Shown here piece by piece: positions 6,801 through 54,669 of a DNA stretch of 55,844 nucleotides. The position numbers and the translations under genes were made by a program. Each line of letters starts with the position of its first letter. The first letter of the stretch is position 1. This stretch comes from Chiloscyllium plagiosum (lineage: Eukaryota): NCBI RefSeq assembly GCF_004010195.1, contig NC_057749.1, positions 14,481,142 to 14,536,985 of the forward strand. Direction: 5' to 3'. A model generated the notes under the pieces. It searched no databases, was not told where the DNA came from, and was given only the letters and a program-made list of their open reading frames with translations.

Positions 6801-7239
6801 CTCTTATGTATGTGTTTTTAAAAATGTCCATGTCACTACAAGGACAAGATAAACTCACAATAAATCCTTTTTGATTTTGCCTTTAGGAATCTGGATATTT
6901 TGTTAAAATCCTCCCACTGCAGAGAGTTGATGATAGACATATTTGTCCTTATGCTAAATAGTAATTTGAGAACCATTTTCAAGGATTTTTACAAGGAGTT
7001 TCAGGCCAAGTTGTTGATAAGCTAGTCAACATTTTGTTTGAAGATCAGGAAAACACCGGGTTTCGATTGTGGTCTTTTACCTCTGTTACGTAGGCTAACA
7101 GAAAACCAGAGTTCCTTTGCTGGTCACTATGCAATGATACCGACTGGAAACAGGTTTATGCAGATAGAAGCAGCCTCAGTTGTGTCCAATAATTAACAGT
7201 TCAATAATCATTTGTTGACTCGGCTAACACAGGAAGAAT

Positions 7240-7328
7240 TCCTGATGAAGGGCTTTTGCCCGAAGCGTCGATTTTCCTGCTCCTCGGATGCTGCCTGACC
7301 TGCTGTGCCTTTCCAGCAGCACTCTAAT
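7240..7328 (+). mobile_element. Hammerhead-bearing mini-retroelement with 16-bp target-site duplication (TSD)
   Basis: CTGATGA (7242-7248)-a-gggc-tttt-gccc-GAAG-cgtc, flanked by identical ctaacacaggaagaat at 7224-7239 and 7329-7344. Confidence 0.8.
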
Positions 7329-8707
7329 CTAACACAGGAAGAATGGCAACTTGTGCTCAGGACTGATACTGACCCACGAAACATACACCACAGAGAAAAT
7401 TCCATCTCTTGAATAATAAAGGGAAAGTCGAAGAAAAACTAAATTCAGGAAGACTACAAATCATGTATACCATTTCATCTATAGCAGGAATGTCACAAAA
7501 TAGGAGCAGGATTACACCATTTAGCCCATTGACTCAGCTCCATCATCTAATAAGATTGTATCTGTGCATTAACACTTGTTGCGTATGCATCTTAATTCTT
7601 GATTCCCTTGCCAGTCGCAAAAAAACTTATCTATCCAGACACTTGGGCTAAATTAGTAGAATTGAGTGAATAACATAATTTTTTTTTATTCACTAACAGG
7701 ATTTATTGTCATAGGAGGAACATAGATAGTTAAACTGGCATTTTTGTTGTCACTCAGTTTTTGATGATACTATCCTACTTAGAGCCTCTCTCAACCCTCT
7801 GGATGCAATTCTAATGATGAGGAAACTGGAAATATTCACGTGGAAACTATCACAAGACTCTGCGTGCACCACTGCCACATTGTTTTGTACAGAGCCTTAC
7901 TGATATATTTGAAATGCATTTTTTACCTTCGGTGACTTCTCCCAGGCAACTAGAGCACCCAGTGTCCAAAAAAGCACAACAATTAGTTTACACAAGAACA
8001 ACATTCACAACAGGACCCAGGCATTTCTGCAGTGTTAGTCACTCAGTCTAAATCAACAGTGTCCTGTGACTACCATGTGAAAGCAGCTCCAGTCTGGTTC
8101 ACAAATCTCCCTTTTTCATTATAAATGGGGTCTCAGTATAAGTGGCTATTTTTATCACTGGACTGAAACTATTATTTCTTTCTTTAGCCAGTTTTCTTTA
8201 TCTTGAGTTTGTTCTGCATCTATTTTCTCTTTAGTCTGTTGCCTTGGAATTACAATATGCAGCTGCTGTGGCATAAAATAATTATTATTGCTATTCTACT
8301 GTAACTCTGGAGTCAGAATGATGATCTGATTCCATTACATTGAAGCCACTCCTTGCCACTTCATTTAATCATTCTGGTATTGCAGTTCCTAACATTTGCC
8401 CTAAACCACTTATTTAATTTTCAAAGTTTTAAAATTAACAATTATACTAGTTTCTTCTTTCCATTGCTTTGATTTATTCTGTTTCATTTATCCTTCGTAA
8501 ATGCCGAAAGCAATGCTGTGCATTCTTATGTAGTTGAGTTAAAACTCCTCCAGCTAAGAATTTGCTTTTTAGTCGGTGGTCTGCAGTTTTTGGTTGGCAA
8601 GTCTGTCTTTCTTAATATTGTCTTTATTCAGCTGCTGCTTTATAACCCTGGCCAAAACCTTTAAGTGTCGGTCTGGGCCTTACTAATCCTATTGCTTTGC
8701 CATCTTG

Positions 8708-9133
8708 ATTGAATAGGCTGGGGCTGTTTTTCCCTGGAGCATCAGAGGCTGAGTGGCAACCATATAGAGGTTTATAAAATCATGAGGGGCATGGATAAGA
8801 TAAATAAACAAAGTCTTTTCCCTGGGGTGGGGGAAGTCCAGAACTACAGGGCATAGGTTTAGGGTGAGGGGGGCAAGATATTAAAGAGACCTAAGGGGTG
8901 ACATTTTCACGCAGAGGGTGGTACATGTATGGAATGAGCTGCCAGAGGAAGTGGTGGAGGCTGGTACAATTGAAACATTTAAAAGGCATCTGCATGGGTA
9001 TATGAATATGAAATGTTCGGAGGGATATGTGCCGCGTGCTGGCAGGTGGAACTAGATTAGGTTGGGATATCTGGTCGGCATGGACGAGTTGGTCCGAAGG
9101 GTCTGTTTCTGCTCTGTACATCTATGACTCTAT
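8708..9133 (+). mobile_element. HER1/CR1 LINE 3' fragment
   Basis: LNRLGLFSLE...FTQRVVHVWNELPEEVVEAGT coding remnant and tail ccgaagggtctgtttc...ctatgactctatga. Confidence 0.9.
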
Positions 9134-9189
9134 GAGGAGGATGATTCTCTTGTTTTGTAAACTCAGCACATGATAATCTTCTCTCTACA

Positions 9190-9317
9190 TAAATTGCTGG
9201 AAAAGCTCAGAACGTCTGAAGAAGGGTTACTCGATCTGAAATGTTAACTCTGCTTTCTCTCCACAGATGGTGCCAAACCTGCTGAGCTTTCCCAGCAATT
9301 TATAGCATCTGCTGTTC
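9190..9317 (+). mobile_element. Short repeat with hammerhead-like core (second family)
   Basis: CTGAAGA (9216-9222)-agggttactcgatct-GAAA-tgttaactctg...ctccacagatg...ctgctgagctt. Related copies lie near 10690-10890, 31525-31630, 33815-33935 and 45385-45490. Confidence 0.6.
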
Positions 9318-9612
9318 ATAGAATCCCGACAGTGTGAAAGCAGGTTATTCAGCCCATCGATTCCATACCGACTCTCAGAAGAACATCCCACCTAGACCCA
9401 TCCCCTACCCTATCCCTGTAACCCTGCATTTCTCATGGCCAGTCCATGTAACCTGCACATCTCTGGACTGTGGGAGGAAACTGGAGGACCTGGAAGAAAT
9501 CCATGCAAACACGGGGAGAATGTGCTAATTCCACACAGTCACCCGAGAGTGGAATCGCACCTGAGTCCCTGGTGCTGTGAGACATGTGAACCACTGAGCC
9601 ACTGTGTGACCC
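9318..9612 (-). mobile_element. HE1-type V-SINE
   Basis: Reverse-strand HE1 (aaccactgagccac, cacggggagaatgtgc, ggactgtgggaggaaac). Confidence 0.85.
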
Positions 9613-11039
9613 TTTTGGTTCTTTTGGTTTTTATTTTATAATCTTCTATCCATTGTATTCAAGTTAATTTTCTTAAAGAGAATGGTTTGTAACAGATACT
9701 GCAATTGAAAACATTTTCCTACAGGAACTTTAATAGGATAGAAATTACAGCACAGAATGTGGCCATCATATTCATGTTTGGTCATTAACTGAAGTTCATG
9801 TTTCCTAACTTCATCTTCTTGTTTTACCCGTCTAGAATTTTCTTTTTCAAATACGTATCTGGGTTACATTCAAATGCTATTATAATTTCTGCTTGAAAAT
9901 CCATTGTGATGAAAGCAATCAAAATTCTAACTTCAAGAAAGCTTTCCTATTGTGCTGTATGTCTGTCTGCTGGCAATCCTGAATTATGTTGTCTTGTTAA
10001 CAATTATACAAGTTACGTATTGGTGAATAGAGAGACTTTTCATCTTGCATTCATCTGCACAAACACAAGATTGCCAAATTTCAAATTGTCACAACAATTC
10101 GTGCTACAGGAGAAAAGGATACTGATTAGTTAGCAACTCAGCTCTGATTGGTTGAAGCATCGCAATGGAAAAAGTAACAGGGATCTGGAGGCTGCCCAAG
10201 CTCCCGGGTAATTCTATAAAGGCACAAATTTTGAACAATTAATTGAAACAACCTTGTATTGTTCATAGTTCTGCAAATCTCTAGTCAAACCTTTTTAATC
10301 CCTATTGTACTGGATTGAAGGGAGAAGAAGGGGTTAAAGCCTTTTTTTTAATGTTTCTTCCAAACATTAATCTTTCTGATGTGGTAGCATTCTACTTGGT
10401 CTTAGTTATATCCTTCCATGGTACTAATATACTTCCTTTAGTGGATAGAGTAATTAAACTTGGAAAAATATTTTGAAATATACCAGGGAGCTGGAACAGA
10501 AAAGAAACAGGTTTAGGTTGTGAAAGACAATTTAGACCAGATGGCAGGAAGTATTTCTTTACTCACAGCTGGACTCCTTTAAAAGCAGCTGTTTAGTGTG
10601 AAGGTGGTGGGGTTGGTGTTGTGGAAGGATGAGATGAAATGAGCTAATGGGTCTTCTGAACCTGAACCCAACTCACAATTCTTCCAAAGAAAAACAGAAA
10701 TTGCTTTAAAAATTCAGCAGGTCTGGCAGCATGTGTGGGGAGAAATCTTCAGAACTTGGAAGAACCCTTCTTTAGAACTCGCTGGACCCAAAAAATTTAA
10801 CTCTGATTTCTATCCATAGATGTGGCCACACCGGCTGAGTGTTTCCAACAGTTGCTGTTTTTGTTTCAGATTTCCAGCATCTGCAGTTCTTCCAGTTTCC
10901 AAGTATGCTCATTTGACTACTTGTGTTTTGGAAGAGTCCCTTCTTATTCTATTCTCACCTTCCTAGAATTCTCCTGCTTGCTGAGTAAGTAAAATCAATA
11001 CCTTAGGAATTTTACTTGACCAAATAGACTAAGAAAGAA

Positions 11040-12737: not shown

Positions 12738-12970
12738 TTAACATTTTCACACAGAGGGTGGTGCATGTATGGAATGAGGTGCCAGGGGAAGTAGTGGAAG
12801 CTGGGACAATTACAATATTTAAAAGGCATCTGGATGGGATAGGAATAGAAAGGGTTTAGAGGGCTATGGGCCAAATGCTAGCAAATGGGACTGGATTAAT
12901 TTAGGATATCTGGTCGGCATGGACAAGTTGTACCAAAGGGTGTTTCCATGCTGTGCATCTCTAAAATTCG
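12738..12970 (+). mobile_element. HER1/CR1 LINE 3' fragment nested in an older CR1 remnant (to ~13230)
   Basis: aacattttcacacagagggtggtgcatgtatggaatgag...ggatatctggtcggcatggacaagttg. Confidence 0.8.
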
Positions 12971-13339
12971 ATGAATTATATAAAGTGAAGTTTCTTCATT
13001 TAGAGGGATGTGATGTATTAGAATTTTCCACCATTGAGGTTTGTGGATGCTCAGCTGAATCGTGAGTATGTGCAAGGCTGAGATAAATCATTTTTTTAAA
13101 CAGTAATGGAATAGAGGGATGTAGACAATCGGAAGTGAAGTTCAGGTAGATGATCAGCCATGATCATGATAAATGAAGGAGCGAAGTCAACAGAAGAATG
13201 GCTTACACCCACTTTATCTTTTATTCTATGACCCATCCACTGAATATACAATGTGAAACAAGTCATGGCACCAATAATATCACTGAATCAGAAACTGCCC
13301 ATATTAAGGCTGCTACTACATAATGGCAGTAGAGAGGTC

Positions 13340-15820
13340 TTTAAACTAAATGGGGATGGGTTAGGGGAAGGACTCAGTTATAGGGGAAATTAGAAAACCC
13401 GAATTGAAGAGGTAAGACTGCAGAACTCAGGAGAGGTTATTAAAATTACAAGCACAGACACAAATAGGACAGAGAGTATGGAAAGGATTAGCAATCAAAC
13501 TTCAAGCTCACCGGATAAACAAATGACAATGAGAAGAGGGACGGCTAATACAGGTCTGAAGGTGTTCTATCTGGATGCAGTCAGTATAAGAAATAAGGTA
13601 AATGAGCTTGTGGCATAGGTCAAAATTGGCAGGTATGATGTGGGCATCACGGAGATGTGGCTGCAAGGGGATCAGGATTGGGAGCTGAATATTCAAGGAT
13701 ATACATCTTGAAAAGATGGACAGGTGGGCAGAAGGGGTGAGGTTGTCTTATTAGTAAGAAATTAAATTAAATCAATAGTAAGAAACAAAGTAGGGTCAGA
13801 TGGTGTAGAATCTTTGTGAGTAGGATTGAGGAACTGCAAAGGTAAAAGAAAACATAGTTGGGGTTATATACAGGCCTCCAAATAGTAGTCAGGAGCTGAG
13901 GCTCAAAATACACCAGAATGTAGGAAAGGCAAAGTTATGGTGATCATGGGCGATTTCAATATGCAGGTGGCCTGGGAAAATCAGGTTGGTGATGGATTGC
14001 AAGAAAAGGAGGAATATCTATGACATGGCTTTTTGTAGCTGGTTGTGGTGGCGCCCACTCGGGAATAAGCAATACTGCATTTAGTGTTGTGCAATGAGGC
14101 AGACTTGATAAGGGAGCGTAAGGTGAAGGAACCCTTAGGAGGCAGTGATCATAATATGATTGAATTTTTATTCTGCAATTTGAGAGGGAGAAAATAGAAT
14201 CAGAGGTAACTGTATTACAGCTGAATAAAGGCAACTACAGAGGCATGAGGGAGGAGCTGGTAGAATTGACTGGTAGAGGAGCCTAGCAGGAAAGACAGTG
14301 GAATAGCAACGGCAGGAGTTTCTGGGAGTAATCAGGAGACAAACCAGAAATTCATCCTGAAGGAAAAGAAGCGTGGTACATGGACGATGAGACAACCGTG
14401 GCTGACTAGGAAAGTTAGGGATAGCATAAAAGCAAAAGAGAAAGCATATAATGTGGCAAAGGGCAGTGGAAAACCAGAGGATTGGGAAGCTTACAAAGAC
14501 CAGCAGGGCAACAAAAAAAAGGAGGGAATAGATCAAACATGAGGGTAAGCTAGCCAGTAATATAAAGGAAAACTGCAAGAGTTTCTTTAGATATATGAAC
14601 GGTAAATAAGAGGCAAAAGTGGACATTGAGCTGCTGGAAAATGACAACTCTAGAGATAGGAGTAGGGAACAAGGAAATGGCTGAGGAACTGAATAATATT
14701 TCACGTCAGTCTTCACAGTGGAAGACACAAGAATTATCCCAAAACTTCAAGAGAGTGAGAAGGCAGAGCTGAGTATAGTGGCCATCATCAAGGAGAAGGT
14801 GCTAGAAAATCTGAATGGCCTAAAGATGGATAGATCACCTGGACCAGATGGGCTATACCGCAGAGTTCTAAGGGAGATAGCTGAAGAGATACTGGTGGCG
14901 ATCTTTCAGCAATCGCTAGAATCAGGGAGGGTAACCAAAGGACTGGAAAATCACTAACATAATACCCCTGTTTAAAAAAGGATTAAGGTAAAAGACAGAA
15001 AATTACAGACCAATTAGCCTAATCTCAGTTGTGGGTAAGATCCTGGAATCTACTGTGAACGATGAGATTTCTGAATACTTGGAATTGTATGGTAAAATAG
15101 GGCAAAGTCAGCTTGGTTACATCAAGGGGAGCTGAAAATGTGTTGCTGGAAAAGCGCAGCAGGTCAGGCAGCATCCAGGGAACAGGAGAAACGTCGATTC
15201 TCCTGTTCCCTGGATGCTGCCTGACCTGCTGCGCTTTTCCAGCAACACATTTTCAGCTCTGATCTCCAGCATCTGCAGATCTCACTTTCTCCTCCTACAT
15301 CAAGGGGAGGTCATGCCTGACAAATCTGCTAGAATTCTTTGAGGAAATAACGAGCAGGTTAGGCCAAGGAGTCCCAACGGATGTTATCTACCTGGACTTC
15401 AAGAAAGCCTTTGACAAGGTGCCACACAGGAGGCTCTGAGGCCCATGGTGTCAGAGGCAAGGTGCTAGCATGGATAGAAGCTTGACTGTCTGGCAGAAAG
15501 CAGAGAGTGGGGATAAAAGGGTCTTTCTCAGGATAGCAGCTGGTGACAAGTGGTGTTCCGCAAAGCTCAGCATTGGGACCACAACTTTTCACTTTATACA
15601 TTAACGATCTAGATGAAGGAACTGAGGGCATTTTGGTTAAGTTTGCAAACGACAAAGATAGATAGAGGGACAGGTAGCATTGAGGAGGTGGGGAGGCTAC
15701 AGAAGGATTTGGACAGGTTAGGAGAGTGGGCAAAGAAATGGCAGATGGAGTACAATTTAGGAAAGTGTGAGGTCATGCACTTTCGTAGGAAGAAGAGGCA
15801 TGGGCTATTTTCTAAATGGG
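13340..15820 (+). mobile_element. Large degenerate CR1 LINE ORF2 segment (APE endonuclease + RT), frameshifted
   Basis: LKVFYLDAVSIRNKVNEL, ITEMWL, IMGDFN (atgggcgatttcaat), [42 protein letters not shown](Q)MEYN-KCEVMH, with many stops and frameshifts. Confidence 0.92.
15129..15259. repeat. Perfect 62-bp inverted repeat (7-nt loop) in a mini-element inserted into CR1
   Basis: 15129-15190 is the exact reverse complement of 15198-15259, loop acgtcga. The insert 15132-15295 is flanked by the 14-bp duplication tacatcaaggggag (15118-15131, 15296-15309). Confidence 0.92.
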
Positions 15821-17359
15821 GAGATGAGTTGCAGACGTTTCATCCCCTGTCTAGTTGATATCTTCAGTGTTTTGAGTACAGATTCCATATTTTGCTCCTC
15901 TTTACTGCTTCTAACTGTTGTGTAATGGCTTTGATGGCATTTGTCTTTGGATAAGATGAAAATTGGAACAGGTTCTGCTGTGAAGCTTTCCAAAGGCAAA
16001 TAGCTTATTGACACTCTCCATCCAGGTTTTGCAAATGAAGAGCAGCCTTTTTGATCAGCTGAGAGCGGATTGTACACATAGAACCTTTACTCAGAGATTT
16101 CAGGACTCGAAGGGAAAAAACTCAAGATTTCTTCAAAAAAAAAGTCTGCAATTAATATATTCAAAACATTACATTGATGGATTGCCAGCAGGTTTTGAGT
16201 GAATATGTGTGGATAATGTGGAGGTGGCTCCTACCCACAGAACGGAGGATCAGCTGTCCTACATTTGATGCAGTTACAGATTGTTCTGTCAAAATGTTCT
16301 GTTTTCTGCACAAAGAGATTTTTTAAAATGTTGTATATGTTTACTAATGTCTTAGTTTTTAACAGTCTTTCTGATTTGGTATTTAATGAAATGCACAAAT
16401 GAATCAAAATTGGGTTACTGATTAACCTTAAATATGGTGGTGTTGACCAGTCATAATGAAGGAATTTTGTGACTTCCTTCACCAGCACTAAAGGTCAGTT
16501 TTGATTAAAACATTAGCCTGCTTCTTTCTCTTTCAGGTGGTCAACCTGCTAATTCCAGTCATTGCAGTTTTTCTTAAAACTACTTTATCTTCAAATCTCT
16601 CCCCTCCTTCCCTGAAAACATTGAGTCCTTCCTTGGTCATGGTAGCACCAGTTACCCTGTTGTATTGTAAGTAATCAGAATGTACGACAAGCTTAATCAG
16701 AGAAAGAATTTGTCAGAGTTCCCATTTCTGATTACATCGACGTGGCTTGTGTATTTCAGGCACTCCGTGTGACTGTGGAGTGAAGACTTGAGGTGGGGTA
16801 GCAATCAATGTTGAATCACTTGCTTTGTAGGCCCTCACCTGAGGGACATAATGTTGATGGTTTGAGCAATTGGAACCTCCACATCTGACATACACATTCA
16901 GAAAAAGCAAGGTTTAGCCATCTACATTGTGTGACTCCTTTCAGTTGTACATTTGACCTCTTGTATGTCCCCTTTCACTCTCTGCCCATGTTTGTCTGTT
17001 CTATTATTTTTAAAAATTTGATCAACAGCTCAATTTCTCCATTTTTGGCTCACAGAAAATCTACAGTATAAAATGTTAAAAATTGCATGTAGCAGCTTAG
17101 TTGCTGCTGCTTTACAATGTAATTAAAGGTGCTTCATCATCTGGTAAATTGCTTCAGAAGACAATTTATCAGGTGAATGAATGAAAGGAGAGCATAAAGG
17201 CACATTGGCAGTACAATGTTATTGCTATGTGATTGGTGTTTCAAAGTTAATTAATGCCAAGTCCTTGAAGGGCTTATTCACTTATATTTCTCCCTGCATT
17301 TCCTTGAGCCTTGCCAGGCCCCATCAGATGTAGGATTGGTAGCCAGTAATCATGGATGA

Positions 17360-30651: not shown

Positions 30652-30703
30652 CCTGTCCTCGGATGCTGCCTGAATTGCTGTGCTCTTCCAGCAACACTGA
30701 TCC
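30652..30703 (+). mobile_element. Truncated mini-element (same family as 7240) with 11-bp TSD
   Basis: cctcggatgctgcctgaattgctgtgctcttccagc flanked by agatctctagg at 30641-30651 and 30704-30714. Confidence 0.7.
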
Positions 30704-32115
30704 AGATCTCTAGGTCAGATCATCTCACTCCACCTACACATTACTCCTATGATAAAGCAATTTCAATTAATTCCTTTTGGTCGAAATGCCTGCATAAAAG
30801 CAGAGACTCACTAAAAATGCAAATAGAAATGCCCCCACATCTTCAATGTCTTTGGTGAGATAAAGCACCACAGGCTTCTTGTCTCTGGGACAAGCAGCTA
30901 ATATTATCTCTAATTCCGGTCTGTGATGAAACTTAAATTTATTCATGCCACCATTGACAGCAATGCTTTCTGCAGTCTGGGCCCTTTTACCTTTCCACAC
31001 CGCCTTCTCTCTACTTCTCTGTCTTCCTTCAAGATAGTCGTCAAAGTTATCACTTTCATTTGCACTAATACCTCTTTATGTGGCTCAGTGTCAAAGTGTG
31101 TTTGATAACTCCTCTATGAAGCTTTGGAATGATAAAATTGTGATAGATGCAAGTTGTGCACCTTTTTGATGCACATAAAGATGTTTCCAGGTTCAATTTG
31201 TGGGCAGTGCTGATTTGTTCTGAGACAGAATAGCAGTTAATCTATAAGCCATTTGGTTTTGGTGAGGGTGATGGGGAGAAACCCAGATGCCATTCTTCTT
31301 CCTGACTGGTAAAGTAATGTCTTTAAATGTGGGTATGAGTTCAGCATTGGGCTTTGAATGTAATACCCATCACAGTCAAATAGCCCACTGATGCTTATTG
31401 GCTGGACTTAAGATCTTAAGGATCACCACTCATTGTGCTTCCTGAGCCATGACCCAACACGGGTGGAGGAATCTAGGGTGAAGGGAGAAAAAGTTTAATA
31501 TTTCATTCCAAATACACAACCAGGCATCTGAAATAAAAACAGAGAATGCTGGAATTACTCAGTCCATCCAGAGGTGTCAGTGAAAAGAGAGAAATAGTGT
31601 TAATGCTTCAGCTTGATGACCTTCATCAGAAAGCTGTAAATGGACTGCAGCAGTTGAGAAGGCATCACCTAACCATTATCTTTACAAGGGTAACTAGGAA
31701 TGAAAAGTAAACACTGGTCCAGCCAGCAAAACACACATTCTGTCAGTGAGTAATAAAACAAAGGTATCTGGCTGTGTGGAGTTCAGCTCTGCCAAAAGTG
31801 GGGAAAAAAACAGAGTGATTGACTGATCCATAATGCAGTCCATAGTACAGAGGCTCCCGGCCTAATGATGTTAACCTGTGACCATGTCTTCCCTCTCAGA
31901 TGCCAATATTTCATTGGATACACAGTATGGCACAATATCAGACCATTCAGCCCAACCAGTCCGTGCCATTGTCTCCTTCCATCTTTGCTCATGTAAATCT
32001 ACCATCATAACCATCTATTTCTTTCTTCCTTGAGTGCTTGTGTTACATTCCTTTGCAAACATCTCTACTATTCAGCATTGGGGTCAATTAGTTCAGTTGG
32101 CTAGACAGCTGGTTA

Positions 32116-32258
32116 CTGGTCGAGAGTGGAGTGTTGGAAAAGCACAGCAGGTCAGGCAGCATCCGAGGAGCAGGAGAATCGACATTTCGGGCAGGAGCCC
32201 TTCATCAGAAATCACTCTCTTCTTTGATCTCCAGCATCTGCAGTCCTCACTTTCTCCT
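32116..32258 (-). mobile_element. Hammerhead mini-element (internally inverted) inserted in a SINE
   Basis: Minus strand CTGATGA-a-gggc-tcct-gccc-GAAA-tgtc (32208-32181), followed by a plus-oriented tail. TSD agctggtta at 32107-32115 and 32259-32267. Confidence 0.78.
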
Positions 32259-32689
32259 AGCTGGTTAGTGGTGCAGAGTAATGCCAACAGTGTGGGTTTA
32301 ATTCTCACACCAGCTGAGGATACCGTGAAAGACTCTCCTTCTCAATATCTCCCCTCGCTTGAGACCTGGTGACCCTCAGGTTAAACGACCACCCAACATC
32401 TCTCGCTCTCTCTAACAATGTGGAGGTGCCTATTTTGGACTGGGATAGACAAAGTTAAAAATCACACATCAACTCTTGTTGGACTATAACCTCATATTGT
32501 GTGATTTTTAACTCTCCTCTATGAGAGAGCAGCCCCATGGTCTGATAGGACAATGACAACTTTACCTTTTTATTCAATCATTCATGCAATAGCAAATTCC
32601 TCATCATCACCATTCTTAGGTAAAGAAGTAGAACATGGGAGTTCGCCTGTGTGTTGCAGTCAATAACTATCCTTCAACCAGCATCATTC

Positions 32690-32855: not shown

Positions 32856-35069
32856 ATTTGTATGTGTATAATCAAATGAATGTAAATACAGATTAAAGAC
32901 AATGCAGAAACAAGCCCTCAAAATATAATCAAGCCTCAGAAAAAAAAGTCTGTTGGCAATTTGAAAGCATATAGATGTGAGGCAACGAATAAAGAATTTT
33001 GGGAAATTTCAAGCAATGTGCAAAATACATACTAGGGATGTAACTGCATGTAAATAGTTAAATCTTGGCTTTTCCTGGCTGAAACTAGCCAGGTTAAAGA
33101 ATTTCTCTTCTCCCTCCACCCATAGAACTGGTTTGACACTATTGTGTGTCACAGGAAATGGCAGCAGTGTGAGTACGTCTGGCTCTGATGTCTATAGTGG
33201 GACGGGCATCTTGCCAAAACACACAATGCACAATGTTCTATTTAATATTCTTATGGGAAAAATTAACAAACATCACTAGTTCCCTCCCATTCACTTCTCC
33301 TCAAGTGTTGGGGTACAGTTTCAGGGACACAGCTGTACTTGAGCAGCTCACCATTTGACCACATTCTTTGTGCAAGCCCAGAGTATTGAGAGGAGACAGT
33401 GAGGTTTGCAGATGCTAGAGATCAGAGTTGAGAGTGTGTTGCTGGTAAAGCACAGCAGGTCAGGCAGCATCCGAGGAGCAGGAAAATCGACATGTTGAGC
33501 CGGAATCTATTTAATTTATTGTGGTAGAATAGCAATCAAGCTTGACCATGTCCTCAACCAGCAACTGAAAAACTGTCAGGACCTGAAATCCTCTCTGGGC
33601 TTTTCTCTAGTCCTCTTACCTATGGACACATGAGGCCAGTTCCAGCATCCCTGCCAGTGCCTCCATTGTTTGGGGTAAATTAGCAGATTGACAGAATCAA
33701 ACATTGCACCTCCGACAGACTGAATAGCTGGTACCTGAGTAAGCAAGTGCATTCACCCACTTGTATATTTATGAGCAGGGAAAAACATCTTCCACTTAAC
33801 TAGTGTAAGTAAAGCTCTGATGAAGGGTCATTTAGACTCAAAACAGCTGTCTCCACAGACGCTGCCTGACCTACTGTGATTTCCAGCATTGTTTGTGTTT
33901 AGTACAGGTTCTAGCATCTAGCAGCAACTTGCTCCTACTTCATAATTAAGGTGGTATATATTAACAAAACTAATACTCCTGGTCAGCCTCCTATATTGTA
34001 ACTTTAGAAACTTGAGAGCATCCAAATTCTTCTGTCTGCAACCTAACTTTGCCTCAAGTTCTGTTTACCCATCATCTCAAGTCATCTCCTGATTAAGCAA
34101 TGCCTCCATTTTAAAATTCTCATTCCAGTTTCCAAAATGTTTCAGTCTCGTCCCTGTCTCTTTAATGTGCTACAGCCCACTGGGGTATCTACTCCCTCCC
34201 AAAACTGACCTCTTGAGTATCCCTGATTTTAATTGTGACACCATTGGTTGCTCTGCCTTTGGCTACTTTGATCTGAAACTCTGATCTCCCTCTGCCTGTT
34301 GCCTCACTCTCCTCTTTTAAGTTGCTCCTTAAAACCTACCTCTTTGACCAAGGTTTTGACCACCTTTCTGAATATTTCCTGATATGATTCAGTTTTAAAT
34401 TCTGTTTGATAATGCTGCTGTGAAGCCCTTTGTAGTGTCCTATTATGTTAAAGGTGCTTAATAAGTACAAGTTGTTCTGTGGGATTTAATTCACAGCTTA
34501 TTTCTGAGCATGTAAATTTTGACCTTGGCCCTAATTTTCATTCTGGGATCAGGTACACAGAGGCATAAGAAATCCTGGCTCTACGAAGCCAACCTCTAAA
34601 AATGGCAGCCTCCAATTTCCATTATGGGTTAGATAAGGTGATACAGTAAAAGCAGAGGAAGCTGATGATTTTCAGGAGTCAGTTGGGAAGCCTGATGGGG
34701 GATATCCCACATTGTGTTCCTGTTCAATAATAAAGACTAAAGGATAAAACATCCTACCTGCCCTCAAGCCCTCACTCTTCATGCCCCATCCATGCCACCT
34801 AATTCCCTGTATCAACCCTATAGTGCCCACACTCTTCATGCCAAACTATGATTCTTTACACACTGATGGCCCATCACATGTCTGATACCTTATTCCTCAA
34901 TGTGCATTACACAAAGTCTTTCACACCCCATGTGCCACCCTAAGCCTATCTATTGATCTCTGATAGATGCGCATAAACTCTAACCCCCCAGTCATCCTCA
35001 TGGTTTGTTTTATAATCCTTATGCCAACTCATAGGTCCTACACACCACTCTTTGTTTTCTCCATGCCAA

Positions 35070-35192
35070 CTCACCTACCTGACGAAGGAGCGTCGCTCCA
35101 AAAGTTAATGTGCTTCCAATTAAACCTGTTGGACTATAACCTGGTGTTGTGTGATTTTTAACTTTGTCCAACACCGGCATCTCCGAATCATG
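35070..35192 (+). mobile_element. Short repeat with hammerhead-like core (third family)
   Basis: CTGACGA (35079-35085)-a-ggagc-gtc-gctcc-AAAA, then aaacctgttggactataacctggtgttgtgtgatttttaac. Relatives at 32420-32512, 35699-35938, 38815-38860 and 51985-52070 (-). Confidence 0.65.
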
Positions 35193-35751
35193 TCTCTTAT
35201 TATCCACATGGATGTACATCAGGAGGTATGATGTCCAAAAATAAAGTAACCTATTGACCTTGGGAGAGGACCTTGACTCTTCACCTTATCTATGCTCCTC
35301 ATGACTTTATGAACCCCTATCATGGAAGGGTCTGTTTATGTGCTGTATGACTGTATGCTGACACAATTTTTTTTTAAACTGATAGAAAAGCATTCAATAC
35401 ATTGAAATCCTTTATGAAGCAAGCTTTCACTTAAGTGCTTAATCCCTTATATCAATAAACGTTTCACTCTATAATGGAACTGTCCATTAAAATGCTAATT
35501 TGAAAGACACCCCATTGTGAAAATATTAGTTTGGGAAATCAGTCATGCAGGATAAATCCTATAATGGCTTAGTCGACAGAAAAACTAAAATCCTAGCACC
35601 TTTTTTAAAAACGCCATACTTCTGTTGTGTTTGAAATCTGGTCTTAATCATTGTCCCAGAGGAGGCCTAATTCTAATTCCTTGTTGCAGTACCTCTAATA
35701 AAGTTAAAAATCACACACACCAGATTAAAGTCCAACAGGAAGCACCTGTTG

Positions 35752-35885
35752 GATTCCTGATGAAGGGCTTTTGCCCGAAACGTCAATTCTCCTGCTCCTC
35801 GGATGCTGCCTGACCTGCTGTGCTTTTCCAGCACCACTCCCTCAACTCTGAGATCTCCAGTATCTGCAGTTTTCACTTTCTCCTA
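35752..35885 (+). ncRNA. Minimal type-I hammerhead ribozyme motif with intact core, in a mini-element
   Basis: CTGATGA (35757-35763), stem II gggc/tttt/gccc, GAAA (35777-35780), CGTC cleavage triplet. Confidence 0.75.
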
Positions 35886-37724
35886 ATTGATTTTTAACTT
35901 TGTCCACCCTGGACCAATACTGGCACCTCCAAATCATGACTACCTTAGATAGTAATCCTTCAATTGTATAAACACATTAACAAGGGACTTTTGCAAGCCA
36001 GGTGTTAAAATGCATAATAAAATGCTTCTCCCCTCGGAAATACTTAATCTTGCTTCATTGTGGAATAAAAATTCTAAACTGTCTCACAGAAGAATAATGT
36101 TTTTAAATCCATTTGCAGGAAATGGAATTACTTGCAAGGCCAACATTTGGCAAGCAAGCAACTTTCCCAAACCACTGTAGTGTGTGTGGTGAAGATTGTA
36201 ACAGTTTCTATTTGGTTTTAATGACTATTTCAGAAGGCAGTCAAAGGTAAGCCTCATTTCATTGCTGAAGGTTTGGAGTTCCACATGAGCAGGTCAGGAG
36301 AGCAGATTTCTTCCCCTCAAAGCCAAATGAATAAACTGAATGGGTGTTCATGTAATCTGGTCATGTCATGGTCACCAGATTTAATTCATTAATGAGTTTA
36401 AAATTCCCACACTGATGTGGTGGGATTAGACTCTGTTTCTCCAGATTACAAACCCAGACTTTAGCATATCCACTTGGCATCAACACTTTGTTGTGAATTT
36501 ACAAGAGGTAAATGAAGAGGGAACAGTTCCATGCAGCTCTTTTTATCTGTTTCCCCACTTTATTTCAATGTAATCTATTTCATTGTCATTACTCATTGTC
36601 ACAGTAAAGAGTATTACCTTCATGAAAAGAGGAAAATTGGAAATGCAAATAAAGGTGGTATTTAAAATTGCTATTAGTCCCTGCGAGTTGCTAAGATACT
36701 GATAATCCTTGTGGGTTGCTAAACTACATGACACCATGTTCCAAATCATCATGATTAGACTTTATTCATAAAGACAGCCAGTTGCTTTGTGTTTTTCTGA
36801 CACATTTTTATCTGTGTTTTTGCTTCACATTCAAATCTAGCAGAAACATGGAAATAATTATACAATTACAATGTTCAAAACCATTATCACCAATGCTCCA
36901 TGTATGGGGAAGAGAAGGCTGAATGTGCACCTTTGGTGGAAATGGAAAGCAGAGTAGTAACCAATCAGCTGATTATAACGCCATTCCTAAATCTCCCACC
37001 CCACCCACCACCACCCAACCCATCCCTCACCACCACCAGCCCTGGACCCCACACCCTCCAAACACAACTTGTGAAATTCCACTTTACACCTGAAAAGATT
37101 AGGAAATAAGCTGAGGGTGCAATGGGTGACTGGCCAATTTGATATCTGTCAATAAACAATATTCCTTAATGGGATATGGACACTACTGGCTAGGCCAATT
37201 TTTTTTTTGCATATCCCCAATTGCCCTTGAATCAAGTGGCTGTTTAAGCCATTTCAGAGAGCTGCTAAGAGTCCATTGCTGTCGGTCTGGAGTCACATGA
37301 GGTCAAACTGGGTAAGGATGGCTGACTTTCTTCCCTGAAGGACATCAGTGAACCAAATGGGTGGTTACAAGAGTCATCATTGTTTCATGGGACCATTCTT
37401 AAGACTATCTTCATATTCCAGACTTGTTAATGCATCTGGATTACTTGTCCAATGATTTTAACACTACGTCACTGCTTCCCCCAAAACTTTAGAAAAGCCA
37501 CTATACAAAAATAAGGAATAAAGAATTTGACTGCGTGCAATAAAGGAAACATTAGATGGGGTGGGGGATGAGGTTTTCATCTCCAGCAGGGTGTTTTACA
37601 AGAAGCAACAATGCTTGTGTAATCCTTCATAACTAAAGAAACTGAGCGCAGATAACATGATATTGAAGAATCCAACATTTAATATAGATGGTTATTATAT
37701 TATCAACATTATATTCAAAGATAC

Positions 37725-37825
37725 TTTGGTTTCAGTGGAGGCTTACTGATGATGTCACCTTGCATGGTGATGAAATGTCTGAAAACAAACCTTCCAGCTC
37801 AATAAGCAAACTTACAATTCATATC
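37725..37825 (+). ncRNA. Penelope pseudo-LTR fragment with hammerhead motif
   Basis: CTGATGA (37746-37752)-t-gtcacc-ttgcat-ggtgat-GAAA (37772-37775)-tgtc-tgaaaacaaaccttccagctc, homologous to 54590-54660 of the Penelope copy. Confidence 0.72.
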
Positions 37826-37861
37826 TGAGTGTGCTCACGTTAGGCTATTATATTACAACAG

Positions 37862-38009
37862 TCGAAAAGGGTGGCGCTGGAAAAGCACAGCAGGTCAGGC
37901 AGCATCCAAGGAGCAGGAGAATCAATGTTTCGGGCATAAGCTCTTCATCAAGAATGTGCCACACTTTTCGACTCTGATCTTCAGCATATGCAGTCCTCAC
38001 TTTCTCCTG
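37862..38009 (-). mobile_element. Hammerhead mini-element (internally inverted), core decayed
   Basis: Minus strand TTGATGA-agagcttatgccc-GAAA-catt. Near-TSD ttatattacaacag 37848-37861 / ttatattagaacag 38010-38023. Confidence 0.72.
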
Positions 38010-46329: not shown

Positions 46330-46925
46330 TTCTTCATTCACGGGATGTGAGTGTCATGGCTGGGCCCAGCATTTACTACTCGTGTCTAGTTGTCCTTAAG
46401 AAGATAGTGGTGAGCTGCCTTCTTGAACCAATACAGTGCATTTGGTCTCAGTGCAGCCACCCACAATGCCCTTAGGGAGGGAATTCCAGGATTTTGACCC
46501 AGCGGCAGTGAAAGAGCAGCAATATATTTCCAAGTCAGAATGGTGAGGGGCTTGGAGTGGAACTTGAAGGTGCTGGTGTCCCATGTATCTGCTGCCCTTG
46601 TCCTTTGAGATGCAAGTGGTCTTGGGTTTGGAAGATGTTCTCTGAGGAACTTTGGTGGATTTCTGAAATACATCTCGTAGATAGTTGACACAGTGCTGCT
46701 ACTCTCCACCCTTCAGGCACTCTGCCTGTATTCCTGATGAAGAGCTTTTTGCCCGAAACGTCAATTTTACTGCTCCTCGGATGCTGCCTGAACTGCTGTG
46801 CTTTTCCAGCACCACTAATCCAGAAACAGGTTTCCAGCATCTGCAGTCATTGTTTTTATACAGTGCTGCTACTGAGCATCAGTGATTGAGGAAGTGAATG
46901 TTCATGGATGTGGTGCCAATCAAAC
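46330..46925 (-). mobile_element. L2/Crack-like LINE 3' end interrupted by a hammerhead mini-element
   Basis: ORF 46386-46709 translation is an L2-type RT C-terminus. The insert spans 46704-46859. Confidence 0.75.
46704..46859 (+). mobile_element. Hammerhead mini-element with 14-bp TSD
   Basis: CTGATGA (46734-46740)-agagctttttgccc-GAAA (46755-46758)-cgtc. TSD acagtgctgctact at 46690-46703 and 46860-46873. Confidence 0.8.
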
Positions 46926-47709: not shown

Positions 47710-48224
47710 TGAGTATATTCAGTGGGCTAATAATAGACCTGAGGGCACTAGTTCAAAGCCTACCATAAGTGGTGAGATTCAAATTTAAAATTAGTCCCAT
47801 TCATGAAACTTGTCAATTTTTCACTTGTTCACAGGGAGGGGAATCCTGCCATCCTTACCTGGTCTAACTTTGCTGTAGGTCTGGAGTTGCATCTATGTGG
47901 TTGACCCTTCATTGGCCATTCAGTTCTAAGAGACACCAATCTTACAACTTCTTTGCAGGATCTGGATGTCTGCAGTGAGAAAGGAGTGGTTAGCGGAGGG
48001 AGAAAAATAACCAGAAGTTGGATGTGTGATGTGCTCCCAAATGTTCCTCTTGTTCAATAACTAGCACAAACACACTTTCAGTACCAAGACAACTATCAAC
48101 TGTTTCATGCTTTGTAGAGTCACTCAGGCTGGAGAAGGTTAGAACCTCACCCAATAACCTGAGAGAAAATACATTCAAAGCGAGTGATGACAGATGCACT
48201 GTGCAGGAGAGATAAAGTGAAGAC

Positions 48225-50097: not shown

Positions 50098-50151
50098 CTG
50101 GATCAGAGTGGGGGAATGGGGAGGGAGAGAGAGAGTGAGCTGACAGAGGGA

Positions 50152-50804
50152 NNNNNNNNNNNNNNNNNNNNNNNNNNNNNNNNNNNNNNNNNNNNNNNNN
50201 NNNNNNNNNNNNNNNNNNNNNNNNNNNNNNNNNNNNNNNNNNNNNNNNNNNNNNNNNNNNNNNNNNNNNNNNNNNNNNNNNNNNNNNNNNNNNNNNNNNN
50301 NNNNNNNNNNNNNNNNNNNNNNNNNNNNNNNNNNNNNNNNNNNNNNNNNNNNNNNNNNNNNNNNNNNNNNNNNNNNNNNNNNNNNNNNNNNNNNNNNNNN
50401 NNNNNNNNNNNNNNNNNNNNNNNNNNNNNNNNNNNNNNNNNNNNNNNNNNNNNNNNNNNNNNNNNNNNNNNNNNNNNNNNNNNNNNNNNNNNNNNNNNNN
50501 NNNNNNNNNNNNNNNNNNNNNNNNNNNNNNNNNNNNNNNNNNNNNNNNNNNNNNNNNNNNNNNNNNNNNNNNNNNNNNNNNNNNNNNNNNNNNNNNNNNN
50601 NNNNNNNNNNNNNNNNNNNNNNNNNNNNNNNNNNNNNNNNNNNNNNNNNNNNNNNNNNNNNNNNNNNNNNNNNNNNNNNNNNNNNNNNNNNNNNNNNNNN
50701 NNNNNNNNNNNNNNNNNNNNNNNNNNNNNNNNNNNNNNNNNNNNNNNNNNNNNNNNNNNNNNNNNNNNNNNNNNNNNNNNNNNNNNNNNNNNNNNNNNNN
50801 NNNN
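50152..50804. other. Assembly gap (653 N), inside the predicted THAP-gene intron
   Basis: Run of N. Confidence 0.99.
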
Positions 50805-50887
50805 CGTGCAGAGACCCCAGTGCGTGTCTGTCTCTCTCTCTCTGTGGGGTGTGGGGTGGGGAAAGGGAGCGCAGTTCGCGAACCTTC

Positions 50888-51658
50888 TCAGCCAACTGTC
50901 ACCTCGTTGCCCGGCACAGCCTCCAGCGGCTCGGCGCTCTGGGATGGCCCCGGCTCAGCCCCCCTCTCCCGGCAGCGGCACTCCCGCTGCAGCCGCTCCA
51001 GCTGCCGGGACGTGGCCTCCAGGGCGGCCTCGAGCTGGCGGCTCCGCTGCCGGAGGTGGTCGTTCTCCCCCTTGAGGCAGGCGATGAGGGTCCGGGCCAC
51101 CCTCTGGCTGGAGCTGCAGCGGAGCCGCATGATGGCCTGGACAGCCGCCTGCTCCCAGGAGCCGCTGGGGGGTAAGGGCGACGGCGGCAGCCAGGGCCTC
51201 GGCTCGTCGAGCCGCTGCTGGTGCTGCTTCTTGCGGGCCCTGGTGACCCGGGTCTCCCGGACCCGCCGCTCCTCGGCCTCGGCCTCCTCCTCCTCCTCGT
51301 CCCAGGTCGGGGCCTTGGGCAGCAGCAGGATCTCAGCCCGCGACTTCTTGCGGAGGCCGAGGCCCAGCAGCAGGGTCCCTTCCTCCAGGTGCAGGGAGCA
51401 GACGGCGGCCCCGGGCCCAGGGTCGGGGCCGGACACCAGCTTCAGACCGCGGCCCCTCAAGGCCTGCACCCACCGGCCCCGCTCGTCGACGCCGCTCGGG
51501 AAGTTGTAGAAGCAGAAGGGCTCAAGGCAGGGGCACTCGCGGTGGAGCTGCGGCCGGTGCTGCTCGCAGGCCGCCTCCCTCCACTGGCTCAGGGCGCTGT
51601 GGGTATTGGTGCAGCCGCGGACAGCGCAGCTCCGGCTGTCACCCTCTTCATAGGCCAT
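50888..51658 (-). CDS. THAP (C2CH zinc finger) + acidic tract + coiled-coil protein, ~255 aa, not assignable to a named THAP gene
   Basis: C11-x4-C16...F53P54...R-x2-W63...V-C87-S-L-H90. Poly-Glu tract, heptad region LKGENDHLRQRSRQLEAALEATSRQLERLQ. Intact, high GC3, CpG-rich, start context gctATGG, promoter motifs directly upstream. Confidence 0.85.
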   Translation of the reverse strand: MAYEEGDSRSCAVRGCTNTHSALSQWREAACEQHRPQLHRECPCLEPFCFYNFPSGVDERGRWVQALRGRGLKLVSGPDPGPGAAVCSLHLEEGTLLLGLGLRKKSRAEILLLPKAPTWDEEEEEAEAEERRVRETRVTRARKKQHQQRLDEPRPWLPPSPLPPSGSWEQAAVQAIMRLRCSSSQRVARTLIACLKGENDHLRQRSRQLEAALEATSRQLERLQRECRCRERGAEPGPSQSAEPLEAVPGNEVTVG

Positions 51659-51812
51659 AGCCGGAACCGGAACTACTGACCCCGCGACCTCTCCCCCGCC
51701 CCGCCCCGCTCACCGGAACCGGAAACTCCCTCGGACCGAAAAAAAAACCCCGGTTTTCCCCTGATCCCGCCTCCAGGAAGTGACGTAGGACCCCAAACCG
51801 GAAGAGCGCTTT
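51659..51812 (-). promoter_or_regulatory. CpG-island promoter of the THAP gene
   Basis: Repeated CCGGAA ETS cores (51661, 51667, 51713, 51719, 51798), GC box ccccgccccgcccc, ETS-CRE composite caggaagtgacgt (51774-51786). Confidence 0.75.
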
Positions 51813-52094
51813 TTAAAACATATATATATAAACAAATAAACTATTTTTGACTTTAATTTTTAAAATGAAAACCTTTTCCAGGTTAAAGTTTGCTGGAGGC
51901 AGGTCACTGTGAGAGGAGGCTTGAGCAAGGCTCCCAAGAGGAGACATGGGAACTGGGCTGGAAATAGGACAGAGAAGAATTTTAATGTTAAAATATCTCA
52001 CAACTCCAGGTTGTGGTCCAACAGGTTTATTTGGATGCACTTGCCTCCTGAGCGCTGCTCCTTCATCAGGCTGTTATACTGCTAGGCCATTCCA

Positions 52095-52405
52095 GTTGGA
52101 CAATCACTAGGTTGTTAATCTAGAGACCCGGGTCGTGTCCTGGGGACTGGAGTTCAAATCGAATTTTAATTCAATAAAAGTCCGTAACTAAGAGTCCAAG
52201 GATGACCACTGTCAATTGTTGGGAAAAATCCATCTGGTTCACTAATCCCCTTTTGGGAAGGATACTGCCATCCTTACCTGGTTTGGCCCACGTGTGACTT
52301 CAGACCCAGAGTAATGTGGTTGACTCTTAACTGTCCTCTGGGCAATTAGGGATGGTCAATAAATTGCTCCCTTAGCCAACAACATCCTGATCCCTGAATG
52401 AATAA
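52095..52405 (+). mobile_element. Shark tRNA-derived SINE
   Basis: ctggttcactaatccccttttgggaaggatactgccatccttacctggtttggcccacgtgtgact...gcaattagggatggtcaataaa. Same family at 54735-55070. Confidence 0.7.
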
Positions 52406-52454
52406 GATAATTTAACATGTTAACTATGTTCAATGTGAAAAATATTCAATATTT

Positions 52455-52875
52455 GTTATAGAACAATACAGCCCAGAACAGGCCCTTCAGCCATCGATGT
52501 TGCACCAACCTGTGAACCAATCAAAGCCCCTACACTATCCCATCATCATCCATGTGCTTATCCAAGGATTATTTAAATACCCCTAATGTGGCTGAGTTAA
52601 CTACATTGGCAGGAAAGGCATTCCACCCCCTTACCACTCTCTGAGTAAAGAAGCTGCTTCTGACATCTGTCTTAAATCTATCACCCCTCAATTTGCAGCT
52701 CTGCCCCCTTGTACAAGCCAACATCATCATCTTAGGAAAAAAGACTCTCAGTGTTCACCCTATCAAATCCTCTGATCATCTTGGATGTCTCTATTAAATC
52801 CCCTCTTGGGTCTGTTCTCATTGGAGAGAAGAAGGCTAAGTCCCTCAGTCTTTCCTCATCAGGCCATCCCTCCAC
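52455..52875 (-). mobile_element. CR1-type LINE 3' fragment
   Basis: aacaggcccttcagcc tail, reverse of ttagaggggatttaatagag / tttactcagagagtggtaagg. Confidence 0.7.
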
Positions 52876-53825
52876 ACTGAACACACTATGTTCAGTTTGT
52901 TTTTACAATTAATATGCTTAATGCCAAATATGATGACAGAGTGTGGAATAGGTACAGTACAAACAGAACCCTTCATCCCAGACCTAGTTCCCATGTCTCC
53001 TTTTGGTAGCCTTGCTCAAGCCTCCTTTTCACAGAATAATCCAATTTCCTCTCACAGTGAGCTGCCTCCATCCCTCAGGCAGCACATTCCAGATCTAAAA
53101 TACTTCCCACATGAAAAGGTGCTTGCTCATGACACCTTCACATCTTTTGCCAATCACCTTAAATCAGGGTCCTCTTGCACATGTGCCTTCCATCAATAGG
53201 AATAGTTTCTCTTCATAGTTATTATGTCTGGACTCATGATTTTGAACACCTCTATCAGATTTCCCTTTAAACTCCTACAGGCTAAAGAGAACAGACCTAG
53301 CTTCTACAATCTTCCCACATTTATGAGCACTTTCTTCTTTGGAATCATTCTTGCAAATTTCACTCACTGCATTTGAAAGAAAATTGTCTCTCGTCACCTC
53401 TTGTTCTTTTTCCAATCACCTTAAAGTGGTATCATCTGGTTCTCAATTCTTCTGCAATGGAAGTCTCCAATTACTCTTAGTGAGGGGCTGTTAAGGTGGA
53501 ATGGCAACTGGGTTCAAGTCCCACCTGCTTGTTAATAACATCTATAAACAGGTTGAGTGGAAAGTAGCTAAAACTGCTGTGTCCAGATTCCTCTTGATTT
53601 TAAGCGGCTTAATCAAATCTCCTCTCCGCCTTTTCTGGGAACAATATCCACATTAAATGAGGTCCTCTATCCCCTGACACAAAATTAAATTGAAAACATA
53701 ATTATATTAACACAGCTGTGCAGATTCATGCCCCAATGGAGATTAAATCTGTAAAACAAAGACAGAAAATGCTTGAAATACTAAATAGGTCTTGCAGCAT
53801 CTGTGGAGAGATAAACATAGTTAAC

Positions 53826-54669
53826 ATTAGTGAGTTTTGAGAAGACTTGTAGCTCAGGTTGAGGTTCTGGATGTTGGTTTGCTCGCTGAGTTGGAAGGTT
53901 CATTACCAGATGTGTCGTCACTATACTAGGTTACATCTGCAGTGAGCCTCCAGACAAAGCACTGTTATTTGTGCTTTCTAGTTATGTGTTTGGGTTTCCT
54001 TGGGTTGGTGATGTCATTGCATGTGGTGATATCATTTCCTATGGTGATGTCATTTTCAGTTCTTTTTCTCAGGGGATGGTAAATGGGATCCAAGTCAATG
54101 TTTTTGTTTATAAGAGTTCCGGTTGGAATGCCATGTTTCTAGGAATTGTCATGCATGTCTCTGTTTGGCTTGTCCTAGGATGGATGTGTTGTCCCAGTGG
54201 AAGTGGTGTCCTCCCTTATCTGTATGTAAGGATAATAGTGAGGGAGGGTCATGTCCTACATGGACATCAACTAGCCACAAAACGACATGACCCTCTCACA
54301 TTAGTATCCTTACATACAGATAAGGAAGGACACCACTTCCACTGGGACAAGACATCCATCCTAGGACAAGCCAAACAGAGACACGCATGGCAATTCCTAG
54401 AAGCTTGGCATTCCAACCGAAACTCTATCAACAACACATTGATTTGGATCCCATTTACTTCCCCTGAGAAAAAGAACAGGAAATGACATCAACATAGAAA
54501 ATGACATCACCAAGGCAATTACATCATCAAACCAAGGAAACCCAAACATGTAAACTGAAAGCAGGAAACACCAGCAGTGCTTTGTCCGGAGGTTCACAGA
54601 TGATGTTACCTAGTATGGTGACGAAACATCTGAAAATGAACCTTCCAGCTCAGCGAACAAAGTTACATC
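53826..54669. mobile_element. Penelope-like element fragment arranged as two inverted copies (GIY-YIG endonuclease C-terminus + pseudo-LTR with hammerhead)
   Basis: The right arm encodes HGHQLATKRHDPLTLVSLHTDKEGHHFHWDKTSILGQAKQRHAWQFLEAWHSNRNSIN (Penelope EN tail). 53860-54255 is its reverse complement. TSD catagttaac at 53816-53825 and 54670-54679. Confidence 0.85.

Follow-up and report, generated by a model that had tools for sequence, protein, structure and literature searches.

In the current study, we examined a 55,844-nucleotide (nt) stretch of the Chiloscyllium plagiosum genome (contig NC_057749.1, positions 14,481,142 to 14,536,985; hereafter the window), in which a first reading of the letters, the original prediction, had named 13 minimal hammerhead ribozyme motifs in four repeat families. 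These self-cutting-RNA motifs are genuine, and we conclude with considerable confidence that they are minimal hammerheads in the pseudo-long terminal repeats (pLTRs) of several protein-coding Penelope-like elements (PLEs), family 4 (F4) being of the Poseidon type and families 1 to 3 (F1 to F3) probably of the Neptune type. To that extent this is an ordinary catch: new members of a known motif class, in very high number. More tentatively, at rather less than even confidence, we propose that the short copies record Penelope insertion itself: a protein dimer would prime both nicked strands, each from its own internal start site, the complementary DNAs (cDNAs) would reach a capped start 4 to 13 nt before the core, and ribozyme cutting would be an off-switch on expression.

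All 13 named sites were found in place with the stem II types claimed for them, the one put at about 53940 on the minus strand being at 53942- (a trailing minus marks that strand). In every motif of all four families a single unpaired base stands between CUGANGA (A9) and stem II (G10.1), and a canonical core scan of the window that disallowed this extra base gave no convincing motif. An exact core with at least 3 stem II pairs was matched five times (9216, 15867-, 32208-, 35757 and 37746), whereas 20 dinucleotide shuffles averaged 0.1 matches each; the site at 15867- is a 14th motif, beyond the original 13. With one mismatch and at least 4 stem II pairs there were 9 matches against 2.0 per shuffle. 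The 11 conserved core bases are all kept in five of the 13 named motifs (9216, 32208-, 35757, 37746 and 46734, the last with a stem II mismatch) and the core is broken in the other eight; only 32208- and 37746 combine an intact core with 2 to 3 stem I pairs.

Genome-wide (3.56 Gb), a generic intact core with a paired stem III stub has 215,688 exact matches, about 61 per Mb, against 1,582 for the reversed pattern, and the perfect F1 core has 87,506 against 0. The original prediction had expected very high numbers from the density in the window, and rightly so. The window contains 21 arms (single pLTR copies) of F1, F2 and F4, and four unselected 10-kb stretches, 40 kb in all, contain 16; extrapolated from these 96 kb, the arm total comes roughly to the order of a million. 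That the motifs are chance matches to a short pattern might be argued from the two or so hits that the relaxed scan yields per shuffled window and from an Rfam scan of the window that gave no hammerhead family up to E=10. We give this practically no credence in the face of the exact-match excesses, in the window as in the genome, and of stem I pairs that change between families while staying paired; the shuffle and reversed-pattern controls already refute it.

Motif positions are counted from the C of CUGA as 0. Positions 15.2 and 16.2 are complementary and the stem III loop is absent in all four families; the pair is C-G in F1, F3 and F4, where it is subject to CpG decay, and G-C in F2. The cut triplet is GUC in F1 and F4, GUU in F3 and CUA in F2. 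Stem I comprises 3 to 4 pairs that are specific to each family and nonetheless paired, the first being C-G in F1 and F2, U-A in F3 and A-U in F4, so that stem I can form, with compensation between families. Of 36 F4 arms, 32, 32 and 33 keep the respective pairs, and sliding the partner by one lowers these counts to 0, 5 and 26; the F1 counts are 38, 53, 9 and 52 of 62 arms, the third position being mostly a U-U mismatch (9/62 paired). F2 stem I also pairs if slid by two, owing to a GU repeat. F1 and F3 have 3′ sequence in common, which makes them sister families. In one F4 copy (L058:2525-2610; L numbers denote fetched loci), an upstream GGAGG and a downstream CCUUCC are complementary beyond stem I, across an internal loop, and could lengthen stem I in the manner of fuller type I hammerheads.

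The minimal hammerheads of PLEs (Cervera and De la Pena 2014, PMC4209133) have the same core with an unpaired base between 9 and 10.1 and a G10.1-C11.1 pair, a palindromic 15.2-16.2 without stem III, and a short stem I. As here, they occur in many families per genome, mostly as single motifs from truncated elements, with opposite-strand pairs. The usual U-U at the third F1 stem I pair sets our motifs apart, as does their number, which far exceeds the ~4,000 counted in coelacanth and ~9,000 in Xenopus, although the descriptor used there was stricter. The portions of that paper's text and the two supplement files searched name no shark.

In longer copies, all four families lie downstream of Penelope-type coding sequence, which identifies them as the pLTR ends of protein-coding elements. 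Longer F1 copies extend upstream into an endonuclease-like frame with a CX4CxxC linker (loci L008, L018 and L019) and reverse transcriptase (RT) motifs, the latter recognized by eye; this frame matches the F4 endonuclease (E 3e-5), and the upstream piece matches Pfam RVT_1 weakly (E 0.06). F4 upstream frames match RVT_1 at E 2.7e-5 and 4.2e-5 (below the cut-off) and GIY-YIG at E 1.2e-4 (at the cut-off), with RVT_1 followed by GIY-YIG in locus L059. A search with the endonuclease peptide from the window gave 150 scored matches among 55,125 candidates, and in most fetched loci the F4 motif comes after that peptide. The F4 ATG lies where stem II begins, and its frame stays open toward the long 3′ end (at least 26 codons in 3 of 4 copies). 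F2 follows another endonuclease-like C-terminus in L036 and L066, and F3 an endonuclease-like frame in L026; no F1-type endonuclease piece was present in the 12 stretches fetched for F3. The original prediction's view of Penelope-type minimal type I hammerheads, mobilized by Penelope RT and endonuclease, stands.

Judged by sequence, F4 belongs to the Poseidon clade (it lacks a cysteine linker and its open reading frame (ORF) starts at stem II), and the linker before the endonuclease probably places F1 with the Neptune type. F2 and F3 copies do not reach the linker region, and their provisional Neptune assignment is made by similarity and C-terminal motifs, the F2 label coming from such motifs. 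A CX2-5CxxC linker is a feature by which both Neptune and Nematis are recognized (Craig et al. 2021, PMC8557442). At the ORF start of F3 (window 9240-9262; L079-L090), a branch-point-like motif, a pyrimidine tract and a CAG right before the ATG, about 25 nt past the cut site, form a possible 3′ splice site. Several points count against the assignment to PLEs: the coding pieces of F1 to F3 have no Pfam match at the cut-off; F2 and F3 are tied to coding sequence by one or two degenerate copies each; and a full-length intact element was not retrieved, the loci extending just ~1.5 kb upstream. Pfam also gave no match for the 84-amino-acid (aa) window piece, and nothing or noise for 5 of 10 longer upstream pieces. 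As candidates for partial tandems, in which a pLTR continues into an ORF start, 2 of 54 F1 long-end arms share ~147 nt of downstream sequence, against 0 of 25 in F2; the 2 of 26 F4 long-end arms with common downstream sequence resemble an unrelated LINE flank.

Within the window, a Poseidon-type insertion lies at 53827-54670. Each of its two arms comprises an endonuclease C-terminus, a 3′ untranslated region and a broken F4 hammerhead (53942- and 54597+), the motif lying ~115 nt after the C-terminus, and a 10-bp direct duplication (53817-53826 / 54671-54680) brackets the whole. The insertions in the window are as follows (TSD, target-site duplication; unstranded, no single strand assigned).

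7240..7328, plus strand: F1 solo pLTR arm; core at 7242 with A15.1 mutated; starts 2 nt before the core; 16-bp TSD.
9216..9300, plus strand: F3 arm; intact core, stem I of 1 pair; short inverted piece at 9189-9218.
10698..10873, unstranded: F3 head-to-head pair; degenerate, ends approximate; absent from the original prediction.
15129..15293, unstranded: F1 head-to-head pair; joined at ~+21; 14-bp TSD; long hairpin.
15830..15872, minus strand: F4-sister motif; intact core at 15867; ends approximate; absent from the original prediction.
30652..30713, plus strand: F1 arm without core; starts at +34; 9-bp duplication.
31520..31629, minus strand: old F3-type arm; core broken; lower end approximate.
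32119..32264, unstranded: F1 head-to-head pair; core at 32208 intact in the minus arm, the plus arm being a tail end only.
32418..32513, unstranded: F2 head-to-head pair without core.
33391..33500, minus strand: F1 arm; starts at +16.
33817..33915, plus strand: F3-type arm; G12 mutated; upper end approximate.
35077..35189, plus strand: F2 arm; core at 35079, G12 mutated.
35700..35935, unstranded: composite F2/F1/F2; inverted F2 piece 35700-35739, F1 arm 35754-35889 (core intact at 35757, first stem I pair lost), F2 tail end 35888-35935.
37731..37816, plus strand: F4 arm; intact core at 37746, 3-pair stem I.
37860..38008, unstranded: F1 head-to-head pair; core at 37951- broken.
46704..46848, plus strand: F1 arm; begins 30 nt ahead of its core at 46734; mismatch in stem II; 14-bp duplication.
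51984..52070, minus strand: F2 arm; core broken (52069-).
53827..54670, unstranded: Penelope insertion of the Poseidon type; two arms head to head, the left end tailed and the right end untailed.
54807..54848, minus strand: F1 arm without core; starts at +39.

F1 arms also stand within or back to back with F2 or F4 arms (35700-35935; L040:2467-2691; L058:1196-1352). Such mixed arms are probably nested insertions into AT-rich pLTR sites, and may alternatively be products of mixed two-family priming.

The anatomy of these insertions is that of PLEs in most respects. The 3′ ends are bimodal (F1, ~+85-95 and +125; F2, +85 and +120; F4, +75 and +113), and these two fixed ends, 35-40 nt apart, define the 30-40 bp tail of the elements. 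Among 200 arms, neighbors within 700 nt were head to head in 53 cases, direct in 8 and tail to tail in 4, and 49 of the 53 head-to-head pairs join a long to a short end; two F1 cores stand back to back within 30 nt at 11,201 loci genome-wide (control, 0). Clear insertion units are bracketed by 9-17 bp TSDs; an automatic finder gave many weak calls, and the clear cases alone were used. In a typical PLE insertion (Arkhipova et al. 2013, PMC3846280; Craig et al. 2021, PMC8557442), as here, there is 5′ truncation, an inverted 5′-side pLTR, head-to-head junctions, a 30-40 bp tail at one end and TSDs; the pLTR likewise carries TATA and initiator-like motifs and holds the first ORF codons. Unlike typical PLEs, most insertions here are pLTR arms alone.

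In the original prediction's reading, the repeats are independent non-autonomous elements, akin to retrozymes or short interspersed elements (SINEs), whose RNA the hammerhead would trim to unit length and Penelope proteins would mobilize in trans. Most copies are indeed short and non-coding with a fairly fixed 5′ edge, and non-LTR retrozymes (Cervera and de la Pena 2020, PMC7229834; Li et al. 2026 preprint, bioRxiv 10.64898/2026.07.22.740005) similarly have type I hammerheads, are non-coding and are related to pLTRs, with pLTR-derived ones reported from, among others, one cartilaginous fish genome (the preprint). One junction type, moreover, recurs in 7 of the first 50 listed loci, and some short copies may have been reamplified in trans. 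However, retrozymes are defined by tandem arrays (same two sources), whereas the copies here, at 90-135 nt per arm, are dispersed or head to head: no motif-bearing tandem array was found in the window, and the fetched loci have few direct neighbors. Junctions mostly differ between loci, identical sequences form the ends of coding elements, and F1 copies do not end at the cut site. We therefore consider separate, ribozyme-processed elements unlikely, and this part of the original prediction is not supported.

The last point bears directly on which RNA served as template. Among 89,807 F1 copies with an exact anchor just past the cut site (one F1 anchor was used), the AAA of the core is present upstream in 79,100 (88.1%), and a control 3-mer on the other side of the anchor in 77,909 (86.8%). 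A class of F1 copies starting at the cut site was thus not detectable, and could amount to 12% at the very most; that the core is kept as often as the control indicates that these copies were not made from ribozyme-cut RNA. This agrees with in vitro work on the green anole Poseidon element PAc (Frangieh et al. 2024, PMC11167929), where uncut RNA was the main template and no reads ended at the cut site. As in F4, the PAc ORF starts at stem II, and as here the tail is delimited by two internal sites at which RT starts; the more distant one lies 111-118 nt inside the PAc ORF, and the F4 long end ~108 nt past the ATG. F1 to F3, probably Neptune-type, differ from this Poseidon element. Both strands were cut and extended by PAc; the parts of that paper considered here make no mention of short copies that end where the transcript starts, nor do they tie two-strand priming to head-to-head pairs.

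Where, then, do the copies begin? In "bystander" arms, that is, copies caught by chance in fetched DNA rather than the hit that drew the locus in, the start lies within 10 nt upstream of the core for 33 of 43 F1 and 10 of 15 F2 cores, with 9 and 5 longer ones, respectively (F3 templates were few and divergent, and unbiased F4 arms too few, so the counts are for F1 and F2). Genome-wide, the box 22-40 nt upstream is kept in 10,170 of 64,389 F1 cores (16%; 14-18% corrected for chance and decay). Read against the consensus forms of TATA and initiator elements, a T/A box occurs at about -36 in F1, -38 in F2 (a canonical TATA), -36 to -32 in F3 and -42 in F4, followed ~30 nt later by an initiator-like A at -4, -8, -4 and -13, respectively. 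The F1 spacer from box to start varies in sequence by subfamily but hardly in length. A possible trace of the cap, an extra G at the 5′ junction, was present in 10 of the 20 cases with non-templated bases (out of 42; p=0.02), a figure confounded by overlap with the inverted partner.

The starts within 10 nt upstream of the core, together with the 49 tailed-untailed pairs, suggest cDNA run-off from two internal priming sites, and we infer from sequence that the short copies are cDNAs run off to the 5′ end of the transcript, the pairs arising from priming at both nicks. In this scheme, the element protein would nick both target strands and prime reverse transcription internally on the RNA, from two positions ~75-130 nt downstream of the core. 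With a transcript that starts just upstream of the hammerhead, the cDNA would run off the 5′ end after ~90-135 nt and leave a short copy; use of both nicks would give two cDNAs joined back to back. The template would be uncut RNA. The hammerhead would be kept by selection in source elements, where it probably cuts the transcript slowly and in dependence on a dimer or on protein, and would be a passenger in genomic copies.

Some observations sit poorly with this scheme. The 5′ ends spread from 0 to -9 rather than falling on one base, and in some copies fall inside the motif; the evidence for the transcription start is sequence motifs; the Penelope promoter of D. virilis is TATA-less and internal (PMC2377424); and a single-cell poly(A) run, a kind of library poorly suited to cleavage, showed no pile-up of read starts or ends. 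The same elements might instead owe their 5′ cluster to an RT stalling or jumping at the hammerhead fold, or to antisense self-priming, with no transcription start involved. This reading, which contests the mechanism only, is in our view a serious possibility, though we lean against it. Earlier authors attribute the junctions of PLEs either to self-priming, with an antisense strand as template, or to resolution by the endonuclease (PMC3846280, PMC8557442), self-priming for head-to-head junctions being the proposal of PMC3846280. Some junctions here lie inside the motif (+6 to +31) with short copies of motif sequence, and the ends are scattered over ~10 nt. On the other hand, an enzyme arriving from the 3′ side should halt at the 3′ edge of the structure, and almost no stops occur between +29 and +21; monomer folds are weak (z -1.8 to +1.7 in 5 single-arm stretches) and do not give the hammerhead shape. 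Each of the four families has a TATA-like box some 30 nt ahead of an initiator-like A, and self-priming by itself fails to predict one tailed and one untailed arm. The run-off scheme, two-strand priming for PLEs and these repeats in sharks were not found described in the sources covered, which did not include Repbase, Dfam and most subscription papers. The 5′-edge start and the tailed-untailed pairing go beyond the parts of the papers compared, although supplementary coverage figures of PMC11167929 may show the edge.

Once inserted, the copies decay. The catalytic G12 lies in a CpG and is altered in 23% (F1), 48% (F2) and 27% (F4) of arms; in F1, core CpGs changed in 8 of 39 cases and flank CpGs in 41 of 159 (p=0.54), G12 being lost at the CpG rate. 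All 11 core bases are intact in 45 of 78 F1, 14 of 33 F2 and 13 of 38 F4 arms. The core is conserved from family to family, though not clearly within copies: non-CpG divergence is level in F2 (0.030 in core, 0.029 in flank) and F4 (0.066 and 0.075), with a gap in F1. There, and to the detriment of the passenger view, the non-CpG core of bystander arms is somewhat better kept (0.023 against 0.045-0.063), with 9 changes in 394 against 66 in 1480 (p=0.06), or 101 in 1600 if subfamily-diagnostic columns are included (p=0.001). This gap may come from ascertainment or from subfamily variation in the flanks, and could also come from selection on some copies.

The same single-cell run yielded 5,100 family reads on 35000-35950, on both strands (a second run gave none), some spanning the F2 cut site. 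Poly(A) is carried by 403 reads from 35139 (+60 in F2), ~20 nt past AAUAAA/AUUAAA and before both RT start sites. There may thus be an LTR-like poly(A) site within the F2 pLTR; the reads may stem from few loci. Uncut polyadenylated RNA is made from some loci, an observation that does not inform on the fraction cut. These reads, the slightly better kept F1 core and the two complete-looking motifs among the 13 might suggest that the host keeps some window copies as working ribozymes or regulatory hairpins. We regard this as very unlikely: eight of the 13 cores are no longer intact, G12 changes as fast as other CpG sites, in published work minimal hammerhead monomers did not cut and even dimers did so weakly (PMC4209133), and a head-to-head pair folds as one long hairpin that buries both cores (z -12). 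The best Rfam match in the window was mir-671 on the F1 pair at 15129-15293 (48.9 bits, E 1.3e-5; cut-off, 65); head-to-head hairpins of this kind are open to misreading as microRNA precursors in annotation.

The remainder of the window holds repeats of other kinds. Multicopy LINE 3′ ends, presumably CR1/L2-like by their motifs, occur at 8728-9135, 12740-12974, 22808-23307, 40566-40933 and 3347-3498, and a 143-aa LINE piece had no Pfam match. A SINE-like family with an internal 51-nt repeat (9319-9584, 17369-17725, 20137-20466 and 1826-2173) has an end that we take to be tRNA-like. At 50891-51709 on the minus strand, a GC-rich open frame of 273 codons with a weak THAP match (E 4.4e-4, below the cut-off) and a coiled-coil-like end is likely a host THAP gene or a transposase-derived gene. 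Two runs of N, ~47210-47710 and 50150-50800, total 1,153 bases.

The motif class and the elements that host it were already known, and the useful part of these findings is their scale: with more than 200,000 intact cores in one genome, counting can now address the purpose of the hammerhead and the origin of head-to-head insertions that bear a tail on one side. If the run-off scheme is true, the hammerhead occupies the first 35-50 nt of the mRNA, and its cleavage would take away the cap, together with the start codon in the Poseidon type. Cutting would then be an off-switch on expression rather than a step in making the template, and poly(A) addition in the F2 pLTR, ahead of the RT start sites, would explain why short copies dominate.

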